IMG/VR virus record: IMGVR_UViG_2531839486_000011
Strand: one strand, 5' to 3'
Length of the DNA: 5,433 nucleotides
Source: a virus
Lineage: Duplodnaviria; Heunggongvirae; Uroviricota; Caudoviricetes
Shown in pieces: positions 402 through 5,035 of the stretch. The notes beneath the pieces were generated by a model. The model was not told where the DNA came from and ran no database searches. It saw nothing but the letters and a program-made list of their open reading frames with translations. Positions within the stretch are counted from its first letter, which is position 1; every line of letters starts with the position of its first letter. A program made the translations under genes and the position numbers.

Positions 402-557
402 TTACTCCTCAGGTTCGTAAGCTGTGAAGACAGCGACCTCCGTCTGGCCGGTTCGGATTCGTACCTCGCAGAGGTCTTTCCTCGTTACCAGTGCCGTCAC
501 TATGACGGTTAAACAGATGACGATCAGGGCGATTAACATCGCCTTTTGCTGCTTCAT
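402..557 (-). CDS. hokD: Hok/Gef family type I toxin, 51 aa (small membrane-depolarising peptide)
   Basis: The internal ATG at 557-555 of the 70-aa track ORF gives MKQQKAMLIALIVICLTVIVTALVTRKDLCEVRIRTGQTEVAVFTAYEPEE: one hydrophobic helix followed by the conserved TRKDLCE...EVAVF...AYE core of Hok/Gef/RelF. SD AAGGAG lies 9 nt upstream. Assignment to the hokD/relF subtype rather than hokC is from memory and less certain than the family call. Confidence 0.85.
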   Translation of the reverse strand: MKQQKAMLIALIVICLTVIVTALVTRKDLCEVRIRTGQTEVAVFTAYEPEE

Positions 558-614
558 AGCCTGCTTCTCCTTGCCTTTCGGCACGTAAGAGGCTAACCTA
601 GATTTGCCGTTCAT
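402..614 (-). CDS. Mok-like regulatory reading frame (in-frame N-terminal extension of hok, 70 aa)
   Basis: The track ORF 402..614 shares frame and stop with hok and starts 57 nt upstream (ATG at 614-612, SD-like TGAGG upstream). Chromosomal hok loci have such a mok frame that couples hok translation. Whether it is translated here cannot be judged from sequence. Confidence 0.45.
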   Translation of the reverse strand: MNGKSRLASYVPKGKEKQAMKQQKAMLIALIVICLTVIVTALVTRKDLCEVRIRTGQTEVAVFTAYEPEE

Positions 615-660: not shown

Positions 661-1070
661 GTTAACTGGGGCTTTTCTCTATCTGCCTTTGGTGTTCATG
701 CCTGAGACAGATAGCCTCAAGCACCCGCAGCCATTCTACTTAACTCCCGTTACCTCGCCAATATAAAATCAATCAGAAAGGCGATCCATAAGAACAACAG
801 CAAGACAATAAATTGCCATTACAGCTGCAATAGCCAGCGCACATTTGAGAACCAGCACGACAACCTCCTGTATTGGACGTACACCAGTCCTGATAAATAT
901 GAGGCTGTCTCATCATTGATGAGATACAACTATTGGGTATAGTTTCTGTGATTTTGTTCTGTAGAAATGGAACACAACAACCAGTCACCACCAGCACTTC
1001 TTTAAATACGCCAAGTCCGACGCAAGCTAACCTTCTAGTCCGCTTTGAGCGAAAAGCAGACTGTCACGCG

Positions 1071-1175
1071 TTGAAGTTAATTGTATTACTTAGATAAACA
1101 CTATCATTTTCCTGACGTTAAGTTGTATCTTTGATAGGATTAAAAAACGTATAGATAGCTTATGCTACTGAGGGA
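1071..1175 (+). promoter_or_regulatory. AT-rich upstream region of the 1182-1991 gene with Shine-Dalgarno GAGGGA (1170-1175); promoter hexamers not resolved
   Basis: Several sigma70-like hexamers are present (TTGAAG 1071-1076, TTGTAT 1081-1086 and 1123-1128, TTGATA 1131-1136, TATCAT 1102-1107, TATAGA 1150-1155), but no pair has ideal spacing. The SD sits 6-7 nt before the ATG at 1182. Confidence 0.3.
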
Positions 1176-1181
1176 ATAAAA

Positions 1182-1991
1182 ATGACGAAAATTAGTGAAC
1201 GATGGAAGCACAATGGCATTACTGAAGGTTATTGCAATATTTGTGGGAAATATGGCTTTCTCACAAAAGATCATGTTCCTCCAAAGTGCGCCATAACCTT
1301 AGGCCCTGTTTTGCAGAAAACAGTTAGCGAATTTTTTGGTATTCAGGAACCAGTTAAACCATTAAATGCTAAAAATGGCTCTTATTTCAGAACCATTTGC
1401 AGCCACTGTAACAATAAGGTATTAGGTGGGCTCGATGTTGCAATTGAAAATGTAACAAAGTCCTTTAAAGAACAGTTAAGTCGATATATGAATGGTATGA
1501 ATGTATATCCATTCATTAGAATACCTTTTGATAGCATATCTTTCACTAAGGCTATGATTGGGCACGTGCTATCAGCAACTTCAGTTGAAGATTGTAAAAA
1601 AGAACCCGTAGATAGCCCCTTCTATACACCTTTAAAGGATTATGTTTTGGGTAAAAATTCAAGTTTTGAGGAAACTCATGATATTTACTACTGGTTTTAC
1701 CCACACAGAATGCACATATCCGCTCAAAGTGTAGCATTTATGAACGAAGGACATGTGGCATTTATTTGTGCTTTACATTTTTTTCCTATCGGTTTTATTA
1801 TCACAATGAAAAATGAAGGAACATACCCTGCCCACTCTACAAAATTAGAACTTGAAGATAAATTCCTTACATTTAATATGACCTCTATAAATTATGAGTA
1901 TACGACATTTCCATTTGTAAATCTTAAGGGAAACCAAATGTATGCGATAAGCAACGGTCATACTTGTGTGAGTTATCCAATAATTAAGTGA
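1182..1991 (+). CDS. Hypothetical 269-aa protein with N-terminal HNH-like (His-Me finger, zinc-ribbon) nuclease motif; AT-rich, probably horizontally acquired
   Basis: Long ORF with a good RBS. The protein has C18-x2-C21, D31-H32 (TKDHVPPK), Asn candidates at 62/65 and C73-x2-C76-N77 (CSHCNN), the order expected for a zinc-stabilised HNH fold, although the DH to second CxxC spacing (40 aa) is longer than typical. The C-terminal ~190 aa are unrecognised. Hand-sampled G+C is about 35 percent against about 50-55 percent in flanking genes (not computed over the whole gene). Confidence 0.75.
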   Translation: MTKISERWKHNGITEGYCNICGKYGFLTKDHVPPKCAITLGPVLQKTVSEFFGIQEPVKPLNAKNGSYFRTICSHCNNKVLGGLDVAIENVTKSFKEQLSRYMNGMNVYPFIRIPFDSISFTKAMIGHVLSATSVEDCKKEPVDSPFYTPLKDYVLGKNSSFEETHDIYYWFYPHRMHISAQSVAFMNEGHVAFICALHFFPIGFIITMKNEGTYPAHSTKLELEDKFLTFNMTSINYEYTTFPFVNLKGNQMYAISNGHTCVSYPIIK

Positions 1992-2044
1992 CGGCTAAAT
2001 CATACAATCTACGCATGTTCACTTTCTACATATACCATCTATAA

Positions 2045-2070
2045 TGTCCGCTGTTGGCACAAAGCGGACA
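2045..2070. terminator. Stem-loop between convergent genes (8-bp stem TGTCCGCT/AGCGGACA, 10-nt loop); possible weak bidirectional terminator
   Basis: Perfect 8-bp inverted repeat at 2045-2052 and 2063-2070. On the minus-strand transcript it is followed by UUAUAGAU; on the + strand it is not followed by a U-run. It lies between the stop of the + gene (1991) and the stop of the minus gene (2138). Confidence 0.3.
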
Positions 2071-2137
2071 ACCACGCTAGCTCTACCCTGTGCCACAAAA
2101 TGTCAATTTGCATCTGAACTAATGCACTTTAATCTCG

Positions 2138-2560
2138 TCACTTCAATAAATACCGAACATCACCCTGATAAAACGACAATATGCGCTGCATAACTTCACT
2201 CTTCCGGCACTCGCGACAGATTATGTTCTGACGCCTGTCGTAGCGACGTATTTCTCCGTCAGGTAATGACCAGATAAGGTCCGGATCAACCGCAGATGGT
2301 TTCTTCAGCTTTGCCCTTGAGAGCTTTTTACGGGCATTTTGCCAGTCCTTACGCGCCTGTTCAGACGGGAATAACCCGTAACCAGAGTTGTATACATCGC
2401 CGCTGGCAACCAGTTCTCTTGCGAGAACGCTCATCAGATATCTTGTCGCACCTGTCTTGACTTCCAGTTGCCGTAACGTCTCACGCCCACTCTGGCGTAC
2501 GAGTTCAACAACCTGTCCTTTAATTTTTTCCCGCTCTTCTTGTGTAAAAACTTTTGCCAC
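2138..2560 (-). CDS. Hypothetical phage protein, 140 aa, in the position of the second replication gene (helicase-loader slot); GTG start
   Basis: Track ORF 2138..2560. The start codon is GTG (reverse complement of 2558-2560) preceded by a strong SD AGGAGG 4 nt upstream. It is basic and has a C-terminal CRECRK motif. No family recognised; it does not resemble lambda P or DnaC-type loaders. Confidence 0.7.
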   Translation of the reverse strand: MAKVFTQEEREKIKGQVVELVRQSGRETLRQLEVKTGATRYLMSVLARELVASGDVYNSGYGLFPSEQARKDWQNARKKLSRAKLKKPSAVDPDLIWSLPDGEIRRYDRRQNIICRECRKSEVMQRILSFYQGDVRYLLK

Positions 2561-2600
2561 AAGCCCTCCTGAAAATTACCTCATGACCAGAAATTAACAC

Positions 2601-3671
2601 TTACCCCCTGAAGCCCGGCGGAATTTCGTTATCCGGTTCAGAAATATGATTCACACAACGCTGGTTGTTCGTGCCGCTTACCGGGAGCAACCAGGGGTTC
2701 TCAAAATTCCGGTCCGGTCCAAAAAACGTCGTCGCTCGCTGAACAAATTCCGTTCCCGTTTTCCCGGTAGCCGCCAAGTATCTTGCGTAACGCCTCACGC
2801 CATCCAGCATGGCTTCTGGTGGCACCCCCTCGCGTAATCTGGCCTTCCAGGCACTGAAAGCGGATTTCTTCGGGTTTGCTCCGGCACGCAACGGGTACTC
2901 CCGCCAGACCTGTTCGAACACATCCGGATAATCCACTCGTCCCACAGACTGCCCGGTGTTTTCCGGGACTACCCGATCGGCTTCCCGCTGAATGGCGGAA
3001 TCGGCTTCGGGCTGCTGCAGTTGGTGTGATTGCTCCGGCCTTGCGGTCATCACCTGCTGCACAGCGCCCGAATCGGCTTTCAGCGCATACGCTGAATCGG
3101 CTTCCGGTGTCGTGCCTGCTGGCTGACCAAGATTGACGGTCTGAACATCCCCTGCCTGGTTCGTGGCGTTTTTTACGCCATGGACCATAGTGTTTTGATC
3201 TTCTTGATCTGTATCTTTATCTGTATCTTTATCTGTCGTGACTCGTCGTGACATGTGCGTGACATTTCGTGACGCGCCGTGACAATCGCCATTTTGTTCC
3301 CGCTTTCTTTCCCTCTCTCGCTGCGCCCTCTTGCGCTCTGCAGGAGATTTTGCGGTTTGCGAAATATTGCCGTTGTCCTCTTTAAGCACCTGGCGTTTTT
3401 CCCATCCAGTGATTAAATCACCATCAAGTACCCGCCCCTGCATCGTCTGCAAAATTGAATCAATTACCTCTTCTGTCACGTCGAGCGCACTTGCCAAATC
3501 TTCTGTCGTGACATCAATGTGACCTCGCGTGACATTTCGTGACGCGCTCACCAGGAGGTGGATATACACTGCCATCACTGTTGCAATTGGCTGCCCTGAC
3601 ACTCTGGCAATTGTTCGCCACTTAGGGTCATTTGGCATGTCATGCCATAATCTGAGCCAGGCGTTAGCCAT
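2601..3671 (-). CDS. Putative phage replication initiator / replisome organiser (O-like position), about 356 aa
   Basis: Track ORF 2601..3677 begins at a GTG. The ATG two codons in (3671-3669) has a better SD (GAGG about 5 nt upstream), so I place the start at 3671. It is the third gene of the cro-side operon. The coding sequence contains iteron-like phased repeats and encodes a low-complexity acidic linker (TDKDTDKDTDQEDQ) between two domains, as in lambda O with ori inside the gene. Domain identity itself was not recognised with certainty. Confidence 0.7.
   Translation of the reverse strand: MANAWLRLWHDMPNDPKWRTIARVSGQPIATVMAVYIHLLVSASRNVTRGHIDVTTEDLASALDVTEEVIDSILQTMQGRVLDGDLITGWEKRQVLKEDNGNISQTAKSPAERKRAQRERERKREQNGDCHGASRNVTHMSRRVTTDKDTDKDTDQEDQNTMVHGVKNATNQAGDVQTVNLGQPAGTTPEADSAYALKADSGAVQQVMTARPEQSHQLQQPEADSAIQREADRVVPENTGQSVGRVDYPDVFEQVWREYPLRAGANPKKSAFSAWKARLREGVPPEAMLDGVRRYARYLAATGKTGTEFVQRATTFFGPDRNFENPWLLPVSGTNNQRCVNHISEPDNEIPPGFRG
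3207..3284. repeat. Repeat cluster 1 inside the replication gene: 12-bp tandem ATCTGTATCTTT (about 2.5 copies, 3207-3236) followed by five CGTGAC motifs at 10-11 bp phasing (3237, 3247, 3258, 3268, 3278)
   Basis: Read directly from the sequence. Spacings of 10, 11, 10 and 10 bp equal one helical turn. Candidate origin iterons. Confidence 0.5.
3475..3547. repeat. Repeat cluster 2 inside the replication gene: (C/T)GTGAC motifs at 3507, 3518, 3528, 3538 (10-11 bp phasing) plus an inverted copy GTCACG at 3475-3480
   Basis: Read directly from the sequence. Includes a 21-bp exact direct repeat of cluster 1: GCGTGACATTTCGTGACGCGC at 3257-3277 and 3527-3547. Confidence 0.5.
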
Positions 3672-3741
3672 ACTCACCTCTTCTGATACCGAATCTTTTA
3701 CTCACGAGTTGCCGGAAGCGATTCGATATGGCTATTATCAC

Positions 3742-4167
3742 TCAATGCACTGCCACAGCATTTCCTGCCGGGCCACCACGGTTCATCTGATTGAAACCGG
3801 CGATTGCCACTGCGACAAAATCATCAGCGTCTCTCACCAGTCGCTCCCGCGTCTCCACCAGCTCCCGAAAATAAGCTGAACTGTGGCTGCGCATTCTGGC
3901 CACCAGCAAAGGTGGCATTGCCTTTTCGATCGCTGGTAACAACGCCTGAATTTTTTCAACTGCATCAGGGGTGTCTTTCTCTACCCAGCGGAAAATTTTC
4001 TGGGTATTGCGAGCCAGGGCTTCCGGATGGCTGTCGTCATACAGTTCTGGGAACGTCATACCCAGTTCAAAATAAGCCCTGGTTATTTCAGCTGCCGGAA
4101 CTTTTTCACCGTCCGGATGCGCCCAGGCATTCATCGCCATGCGGATGTGTTCATGCTTGATTTTCAT
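3742..4167 (-). CDS. ydaT: YdaT-like protein (CII-position protein / toxic component of the Rac-type YdaS-YdaT module), 141 aa
   Basis: Track ORF with ATG at 4167-4165 and SD AGGAG 8 nt upstream. The N-terminus MKIKHEHIR and the size match my recollection of Rac YdaT. It is the second gene after the Cro-like gene and overlaps its stop by 17 nt. Confidence 0.7.
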   Translation of the reverse strand: MKIKHEHIRMAMNAWAHPDGEKVPAAEITRAYFELGMTFPELYDDSHPEALARNTQKIFRWVEKDTPDAVEKIQALLPAIEKAMPPLLVARMRSHSSAYFRELVETRERLVRDADDFVAVAIAGFNQMNRGGPAGNAVAVH

Positions 4168-4432
4168 GAATCAAGCTCCTAGAAAGTGGTTGTGTTAACG
4201 TTTTGGTATCTTCCAGCTCGGGCCAAATATTCATCCAATCAAAAGGCCTTAGTTGCTGACGTGTAACTTCACCATTACTGGCTCGCTCAATAAGGACACA
4301 TAACGATGCCCCTAACACTTGACCTTTACTCAATGCCTTTCTTAGATAACCGATGCTGGTACCACACTCGCATGCAAACATACGCTGTTCATCTGACGAA
4401 AGAGAATTGAGAAATATTCTTAATTCTTCCAT
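4151..4432 (-). CDS. ydaS: Cro/YdaS-like small DNA-binding protein, 93 aa
   Basis: Track ORF with ATG at 4432-4430 and SD AAGGAG 6 nt upstream. It is the first gene of the operon divergent from the repressor. The motif ...IERASNGEVTRQQLRPFDW...WPEL resembles the YdaS/Cro-like family (recalled, not searched). Confidence 0.7.
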   Translation of the reverse strand: MEELRIFLNSLSSDEQRMFACECGTSIGYLRKALSKGQVLGASLCVLIERASNGEVTRQQLRPFDWMNIWPELEDTKTLTQPLSRSLIHENQA

Positions 4433-4532: not shown

Positions 4533-4952
4533 ATGGACAAATATGAATTTAGACGACAGCAACTCATCAAAATTCGTGATGAGAAATGCGATGGTAAAGC
4601 GGTTAACGTGGCCAGAAAGATCGGGCGCGAGCCTTCTTATGTATCAAGAATGTTGTACCCAGAGGGGAAAAAGGGAAAAAAACGGATCGCTGATGATATG
4701 GTGGAGATTATCGAAGAGTCCTTTGGGTTACCCCGGGGATGGATGGATGGTATCGTTTCATCATCAACGAACACAGCCTCCAGTTATGAAACAAGGGTTC
4801 TAACGCCACGACAACGTATTTTTTTAGATCTCTTAGACGAACTGCCAGAAAGTGAAGCGGATAACTTATTAAAAACTCTTGAAGAGAAAAAACAGTATTA
4901 CAATATGATCTACGAAGAAATCCGTAAAAAGAAAGCACAAAACGCATCATAG
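4533..4952 (+). CDS. Prophage repressor-like HTH DNA-binding protein, 139 aa (cI/RacR functional position)
   Basis: Track ORF with ATG at 4533 and no SD (consistent with a leaderless transcript). Probable helix-turn-helix around GKAVNVARKIGREPSYVSRML. It is divergent from the Cro-like operon. No peptidase S24 motif was recognised. Confidence 0.7.
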   Translation: MDKYEFRRQQLIKIRDEKCDGKAVNVARKIGREPSYVSRMLYPEGKKGKKRIADDMVEIIEESFGLPRGWMDGIVSSSTNTASSYETRVLTPRQRIFLDLLDELPESEADNLLKTLEEKKQYYNMIYEEIRKKKAQNAS

Positions 4953-4994: not shown

Positions 4995-5035
4995 TACCCA
5001 TGGGTATTTACTTTTTAAATACCTATGGGTATCCT
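4995..5035 (+). promoter_or_regulatory. OL/PL-like region: perfect 12-bp palindrome TACCCATGGGTA (4995-5006) and near-copy TACCTATGGGTA (5020-5031) flanking a candidate promoter (-35 TTTACT 5007-5012, -10 TATCCT 5030-5035)
   Basis: Palindromes read directly from the sequence. They share the TACCCA...GGTA half-sites of the two sites in the divergent region, with a similar 25-bp centre spacing. Located downstream of the repressor gene and upstream of the small + strand genes. Confidence 0.45.

Follow-up and report, generated by a model that had tools for sequence, protein, structure and literature searches.

What occupies the place behind a phage replication initiator when the replication module carries no recognisable helicase-loader gene? 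The question is raised by a 5,433-nt stretch of DNA from a tailed-phage record (Caudoviricetes; IMG/VR virus record IMGVR_UViG_2531839486_000011), called the window below, in which an initiator gene is directly followed by an ORF of 140 codons (2138..2560, minus strand). The initial annotation, made from the sequence alone, placed this ORF in the helicase-loader slot of a replication operon and treated its product as unrecognised, either a novel replication accessory factor or a nin-region type protein.

Coding status, family and build of the protein

The ORF starts with GTG, three bases (CTT) downstream of the Shine-Dalgarno sequence AGGAGGG (2564..2570, minus strand; read from the sequence), and a 40-nt spacer (2561..2600, minus strand) separates it from the initiator stop codon. 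The GTG start, the strong Shine-Dalgarno sequence and the location directly downstream of an initiator-like gene are thus as first described. The start position is conserved in 78 related loci, as GTG in 58 and ATG in 20, with a GGAGG kept at the same distance upstream. A search of 90% protein clusters recovered 889 homologues, of which the top 120 are ~140 residues long and mostly carry the name 'DUF977 family protein', and HMMER, run exhaustively over 1.8 billion representatives at 50% identity, matched 102 of them. Full-length relatives range from 117 to 155 residues and align end to end, so the window copy is not truncated, and the idea that it might be the remnant of a longer gene finds no support. 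Comparison of the window allele with 46 other alleles gave dN/dS values of 0.06–0.13. The GTG start codon and the location at a mosaic boundary adjoining an insertion are features that a chance ORF or the decayed leftover of a longer gene might show, but the Pfam match spans the full length of the protein and, together with the end-to-end alignments, the dN/dS values and the conserved Shine-Dalgarno sequence, refutes this reading and excludes it. These results identify the ORF at 2138..2560 as a genuine gene under strong purifying selection.

The gene is of an already known kind. RefSeq holds an identical protein (WP_001151221.1, 100% identity, annotated 'DUF977 family protein'), and a CDS identical to the window gene sits in an E. 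coli prophage integrated beside ompW. The Pfam family DUF977 (PF06163) is matched with E = 7.3e-30 and 104.2 bits against a gathering cut-off of 22.1, and residues 1–135 cover model positions 1–133 of 134, essentially end to end. The protein also matches PHROG 142, 'Ren-like exclusion protein', with E = 1.9e-45; lambda Ren (NP_040633, 96 residues; from NC_001416) matches the same PHROG with E = 1.6e-41. BLASTP aligns window residues 112–131 (NIICRECRKSEVMQRILSFY) with lambda Ren residues 73–92 (NLVFKECRQSAAMKRVLAVY) at E = 5e-6. Alignment of a profile of ten DUF977 proteins to Ren with hhalign gives 94% probability and E = 1.1e-7 over 77 columns, which include both the winged helix and the C-terminal motif. 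The motif common to the window protein and lambda Ren is N-x4-E-C-R-x-S-x2-M-x-R-x-L-x2-Y, and an alignment of lambda Ren with 15 DUF977 proteins shows no substitution at N112, E117, C118, S121, M124 or R126. Sequence and profile comparison place the window protein in the Ren family (DUF977 = PHROG 142, annotated also 'LygF'), which is catalogued in Pfam, PHROG and RefSeq and does not bear out the label 'unrecognised'.

The protein had been described as basic with a C-terminal CRECRK, and both features were found: the pI is 9.9, K+R is 29 against 18 for D+E, and residues 113–119 read ICRECRK. CRECRK is the core of the family signature. A zinc-binding CxxC knuckle or finger was considered for this element and rejected; four Cys/His ligands are needed, Cys115 and Cys118 are the only cysteines of the protein, the first of them is Phe in lambda Ren, and there is no conserved His or further Cys. 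Apart from 'DUF977 family protein', members of the DUF977 family carry the names 'LygF' or 'hypothetical protein'. In the literature, 'DUF977', 'LygF' and 'Ren-like exclusion protein' turned up as bare names, and no paper on function was found. The window protein had no match in NCBIfam or PADLOC, and a PDB sequence search yielded just noise.

DUF977 matches come from Escherichia and Shigella phages and genomes. Spread beyond these two genera was assessed from the 50%-cluster search and contig look-ups; a strict-pattern contig scan gave 5 loci. Copies 91–99% identical to the window gene occur on two MAG contigs assigned to Collinsella and Veillonella (L087 and L089), which are most likely mis-binned E. 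coli prophage DNA.

An AlphaFold2 model of the window protein was built on 19 sequences and has a mean pLDDT of 75. It predicts a winged helix-turn-helix of three helices and a beta wing over codons 7–65 (2366..2542, minus strand), with pLDDT ~90 over residues 11–70 and helices at residues 7–24, 29–36 and 40–53. A basic helix with a net charge of +5 follows at residues 67–84 (10-residue block means of pLDDT 91 and 84), then a low-confidence linker at residues 85–110 (pLDDT ~52) and two short helices with the conserved motif at residues 116–130 (pLDDT 63–75). Alignment, BLASTP and hhalign define this motif within the family as YDRxxNxIC-x-ECR-x-S-xx-M-x-R-[IV]-L-x-FY, encoded by codons 107–131 (2168..2242, minus strand). 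Mean column conservation is 0.75 in residues 107–131 versus 0.29–0.60 elsewhere. The putative recognition helix (residues 40–53) scores 0.38, among the lowest values in the protein, and the linker between the basic helix and the C-terminal motif is poorly conserved. High conservation in the C-terminal helix and low conservation in the recognition helix suggest that the former contacts a conserved partner, and they speak against a conserved operator-reading role for the winged helix.

This architecture bears on whether the protein could be a sequence-specific winged-helix transcription regulator with no direct replication role, for example one that controls read-through into the nin-like or cargo region or represses the adjacent cargo gene. 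The N-terminal winged helix is predicted at high confidence, the pI is that of a basic protein, PHROG 2391 'DNA binding protein' matches residues 1–81, the structural neighbours are MarR, GntR, ArsR and IclR regulators, and one distant family member (L092, described below) is encoded outside a replication block. The Foldseek matches to these regulators in PDB and BFVD are weak, however (E of at least 0.02); they span only the generic 60-residue winged helix, and neither database gave a whole-protein match. The positive charge is concentrated in helix 67–84 and the C-terminal motif rather than in the helix-turn-helix, the invariant element is the C-terminal motif and not the recognition helix, and the same allele adjoins many different downstream cargoes. 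A dedicated regulator is therefore an unlikely reading of the gene.

Position relative to the initiator and loader genes

The genomic position of the gene was compared across 80 IMG/VR loci that encode close relatives (L006–L085), which were fetched and their upstream genes classified. The Ren-like gene closes the replication block in 80/80 loci, in keeping with the membership in a replication operon originally proposed for it. Fifty-nine loci have the window arrangement of initiator, the same 40-nt spacer and Ren-like gene, with an initiator of either the 358-aa window type or a lambda-O-like type of 320–339 aa. A DnaC/IstB-like loader and a DUF1627 gene lie between the initiator and the Ren-like gene in 16 loci. 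Four loci have a 348-aa initiator variant followed by a lambda-P-like loader (PHROG 109, E = 2e-63), DUF1627 and the Ren-like gene, and the remaining locus has initiator, DUF1627 and Ren-like gene. Near-identical alleles (at least 91% identity) sit behind both the DnaC-like and the lambda-P-like loaders, and a near-identical allele follows three unrelated initiator types, the third being the YdaU/DUF1376 type found among the DnaC-like loci.

A gene that takes the place of the loader would be expected to exclude other loaders from its module. Instead, the Ren-like gene coexists with DnaC-like loaders in 16 loci and with P-like loaders in four, always downstream of them, so synteny does not uphold the helicase-loader slot proposed at the outset. 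Since loaders co-occur between the initiator and the Ren-like gene (20/80 loci), the slot that the gene fills is that of ren rather than that of the loader. The gene order in lambda (NC_001416) is O, P, ren, ninB, and that in phiSTEC1589-Stx1c is O, DnaC, 'YdaW family' (DUF1627), DUF977. The alternative of a novel accessory factor or a nin-region type protein consequently survives in its second half, which came close in that the gene is a homologue of ren, between P and ninB; the novelty does not hold.

The junction between initiator and Ren-like gene is a clean module boundary. Between phiSTEC1589-Stx1c and the window, homology breaks off precisely with the initiator stop codon and picks up again at the Ren-like Shine-Dalgarno sequence, and the cassette of DnaC-like and DUF1627 genes replaces the 40-nt spacer in other prophages. 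A deletion scar left by loss of such a DnaC-DUF1627 cassette was looked for at these breakpoints and not found. The module in the window is simply one without a loader gene.

Distant family members (30–41% identity) have the same last-in-replication-block placement on 4/5 informative contigs, among them a 41%-identity relative (L099) located directly after an IstB/DnaC-like gene. The exception is a 30%-identity DUF977 member at 5001–5402 of L092, which lies in an early-left operon in the order YdfE-like exonuclease, Gp157, DUF977, ParB-like, ..., integrase. The DUF977 family is thus not strictly tied to the replication block, and the L092 placement weakens the case for an obligatory link to replication.

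What speaks for a novel helicase loader, or for an adaptor essential to loading that would stand in for lambda P or DnaC where modules lack a loader, is that the Ren-like gene is the sole gene from the initiator to the end of the replication block in the window and in 59/80 loci, with no DnaC-, P- or DnaB-like gene in that interval; the viable phages Tritos and Evi show the same two-gene arrangement. The comparison of loci speaks against it, because alleles at least 91% identical follow dedicated loaders of both kinds and the L099 relative directly follows an IstB/DnaC-like gene. In lambda the homologue coexists with P and is non-essential (PMC10695390). Pfam, NCBIfam and PHROG give no match of the window protein to lambda P, DnaC/IstB or DnaB, as the initial annotation had also noticed, and structure prediction, which it had recommended, yields a winged helix plus a short helix with no ATPase motif and no loader-like fold. 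Lambda P (PHROG 109) and the DnaC/IstB AAA+ proteins (PF01695) have in common with the window protein only the location that it occupies right after the initiator in this window, with no likeness in sequence, motif or fold. A loader function for the Ren-like protein is very unlikely.

The initiator itself offers a better account of why no loader gene is present. The 358-aa product of 2601..3677 (minus strand) is a replication initiator or replisome organiser that matches PHROG 3729 'replication initiation protein' with E = 5.5e-258, and its residues 124–358 match PHROG 1701 'DnaD-like helicase loader'. Its C-terminus, ..QRCVNHISEPDNEIPPGFRG (2601–2663, minus strand; the last ~20 codons), resembles the very C-terminal end of E. 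coli DnaT, the host protein, RDVNTVSEPDSQIPPGFRG; over the last 25 residues of the initiator the identity is 60% (E = 1e-7). Across the 80 loci, a tail of the form ..VN.[IV]S.PD..IPPGFRG ends the 358-aa organiser and also the lambda-O-like and YdaU/DUF1376 initiator types. It occurs with or without a phage DnaC-like gene and is missing only from the 348-aa initiator variant, the one ahead of the lambda-P-like loader. The tail looks like a shared host-factor docking peptide; a literature search for 'PPGFRG' found it in no paper. Helicase recruitment most likely proceeds via the DnaD-like C-terminal domain and the DnaT-like tail of the initiator, which would engage host DnaB-DnaC. That the Ren-like protein acts in loader-less modules (59/80 loci) as an adaptor, together with the DnaT-tailed initiator, to recruit host DnaB-DnaC is highly improbable. 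If it were true, the Ren-like protein would be a functional substitute for a loader and Ren would gain a biochemical role.

The initiator gene contains repeats of its own. Copies of [C/T]GTGAC form clusters at 3237–3283 and 3507–3543, with five and four copies at a spacing of 10–11 nt, which puts the copies on the same face of the helix. These clusters resemble an iteron-type origin within the initiator gene, as in lambda O. A tandem 12-nt repeat at 3202–3225 (initiator codons ~151–159) encodes the acidic sequence TDKDTDKDTD.

The insert boundary and the rest of the window

The initial annotation had regarded the gene as the last of the phage backbone before an AT-rich moron insertion, and mapping of the boundary by BLASTN of the window against 83 related loci supports this. 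Backbone homology over the Ren-like gene ends at 2042–2047 in 60/83 loci, ~95 nt past the stop codon, leaving a conserved 3' flank (2043..2137, minus strand) at whose far end the homology stops. On the hok/sok side homology ends at ~1052–1063, or at 746/791. The AT-rich cassette between these limits (1063..2042) is common to only 8/83 related loci, its GC content is 0.32–0.37 over ~1050–2050 versus ~0.5 in the flanks, and the distance from the Ren-like gene to hok varies from 1.0 to 3.5 kb among loci. The region after the Ren-like gene is a hypervariable cargo slot. A pattern scan for an intrinsic terminator downstream of the Ren-like gene found none, and the fold z-score was -0.84, so no convincing terminator was detected there.

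The cassette carries a 269-aa ORF on the opposite (plus) strand (1182..1991), whose product matches only PHROG 21495 (unknown function) and has no Pfam or PADLOC match. Its sequence contains CxxC...DHVPPK...CxxCN, which looks HNH-nuclease-like. Phage Tritos has a PADLOC PDC-S15 candidate defence gene in the same slot. Possibly the slot is a hotspot for defence genes or morons, and the 269-aa ORF an undescribed candidate of this kind.

On the other side of the initiator lie a cII/YdaT-like gene (3742..4167, minus strand), a Cro/YdaS-like gene (4151..4432, minus strand) and a divergently transcribed gene for a 139-aa repressor (4533..4952, plus strand). Beyond the cargo cassette are a hok-family toxin ORF (402..614, minus strand; Pfam HOK_GEF, E = 3e-23; hokD in relatives) and the sok antisense RNA (552–726; Rfam RF01794, 110 bits). 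The window begins with the end of an IS4-like IS421 element (1–378), whose transposase N-terminus runs off the window on the minus strand. This IS421 end, which adjoins hokD directly, has thousands of 100% identical copies in E. coli; homology of related prophages to the window starts only at position 379.

Probable role and comparison with known systems

What is known of ren function comes from lambda. According to bioRxiv 10.1101/2021.04.19.439022 and its supplement, lambda ren overlaps, and is co-translated with, O and P; heteroimmune lambda with a mutant ren gene shows poor growth on lysogens that are Rex+, and the mutations that suppress this defect lie in O and P (Toothman and Herskowitz 1980, as cited in the supplement). 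The same source finds by bacterial two-hybrid that Ren binds RexA and RexB, and considers ren 'likely involved in DNA replication'. Escape from Rex exclusion is the only known ren phenotype, and it is known only for lambda. A RexB-Ren interaction is also found in yeast two-hybrid (PMC3224144). A CRISPRi essentiality map, with polar effects on Q bypassed, confirms that plaque formation does not require ren (PMC10695390).

The reading that we favour, with a probability of about 80%, is that the window gene, as a member of the Ren family, is to Rac/Qin-like E. coli prophages what ren is to lambda, closing the early operon, and that it encodes a dispensable accessory of the replication complex. 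The comparisons above show the family membership, the two-part build and the last-gene position, which is constant across initiator types and with or without a loader gene; the role is the inferred part. The gene would be expressed as the last cistron of a rightward early operon in the order cro-like, cII/YdaT-like, initiator, optional loader, Ren-like. On this reading the Ren-like protein is not the helicase loader. By analogy with lambda genetics and the two-hybrid results, it may associate with the phage replication initiation complex as a dispensable accessory. Its benefit would be conditional, allowing the phage to replicate without triggering, or succumbing to, Rex-type abortive exclusion. 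A conserved partner would dock on the C-terminal helix, and contacts to DNA or protein would come from the variable winged helix.

The mechanistic half of this explanation carries lambda genetics over to a protein of ~21% sequence identity. Pfam and PHROG searches, and the annotation of the prophage with the identical CDS, show no rexAB in the prophage immunity region, so no evident target for the only known Ren phenotype lies in cis. Should the proposed role be correct, the exclusion system that matters would be one from other prophages or from the host. The function of the protein may also have diverged from that of Ren, given the ~44 extra residues of the basic helix and linker.

The lambda observations can also be read as pointing to a direct anti-defence inhibitor that acts on abortive-infection proteins (RexA/RexB-like or others) of the host or a prophage, independently of the replication machinery. 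The Ren-RexA/RexB two-hybrid interactions and the Rex sensitivity of ren mutants (bioRxiv 10.1101/2021.04.19.439022; PMC3224144) are what such an inhibitor would show, and the PHROG category is 'moron, auxiliary metabolic gene and host takeover'. In addition, K-12 ydaW, from the neighbouring and distantly related YdaW/DUF1627 family, was reported to block RcaT, the toxin of retron-Sen2 (bioRxiv 10.1101/2020.06.22.160242). Against this, the suppressors in O and P point to the replication complex as the site of action, the gene is coupled tightly and almost universally to replication genes rather than to anti-defence islands, it has no PADLOC match and no anti-defence annotation, and YdaW belongs to another family. 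An inhibitor of this kind is conceivable, though we regard it as doubtful.

The separateness of the YdaW family was established directly. The DUF1627/YdaW genes examined lie at 4392–5162 of L002 and at 5753–6313 of L005 (K-12 ydaW). K-12 Rac YdaW / DUF1627 (PHROG 630) is the neighbour gene in many modules of the order initiator, loader, DUF1627, DUF977, and is absent from the window. It has two winged helices, the second distantly like the Ren N-terminal domain (PHROG 142, E = 1e-6), and lacks the C-terminal ECR...M.R.L..Y motif. K-12 YdaW matches the DUF1627 gene of phiSTEC1589 with E = 5e-51. Identity of the window gene with K-12 ydaW was rejected, as the BLASTP comparison gave E = 8.6 and YdaW is of the DUF1627 family; transfer of the RcaT-blocker result to the window gene was rejected for the same family assignment and lack of similarity. 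There are hints that the operon part around the DUF1627 and Ren-like genes may encode anti-defence functions.

For annotation, the favoured reading as counterpart of lambda ren means that the gene should be labelled Ren-like / DUF977, not a new replication factor or loader. Lambda ren was genetically defined in 1980, and its relatives end the replication operons of many E. coli prophages. Experiments have concrete starting points in the invariance of the C-terminal helix and in the fixed place of the gene at the end of the block; both are properties of a catalogued family and not discoveries specific to the window.

Compared with the DUF977/'LygF' proteins of Rac-like, Stx and other E. coli and Shigella phages, the window protein is a full-length member with no substantive difference, and the proteins of Tritos, Evi, Rac-SA53 and the phiSTEC1589-Stx1c phage are 82–99% identical to it. 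Lambda Ren is the more distant relative. It shares with the window protein membership of PHROG 142, the N-terminal winged helix and the C-terminal N-x4-ECR-x-S-xx-M-x-R-[IV]-L-x2-Y, and with the window gene the place of last cistron past the replication genes and ahead of a nin-like region. Overall identity between the two is only ~21%, and lambda Ren falls short of the Pfam DUF977 model, which the window protein passes. The window protein is ~44 residues longer, with the basic helix 67–84 and the low-confidence linker inserted between the shared parts. Lambda carries both rexAB and the P loader, whereas the window prophage has neither.
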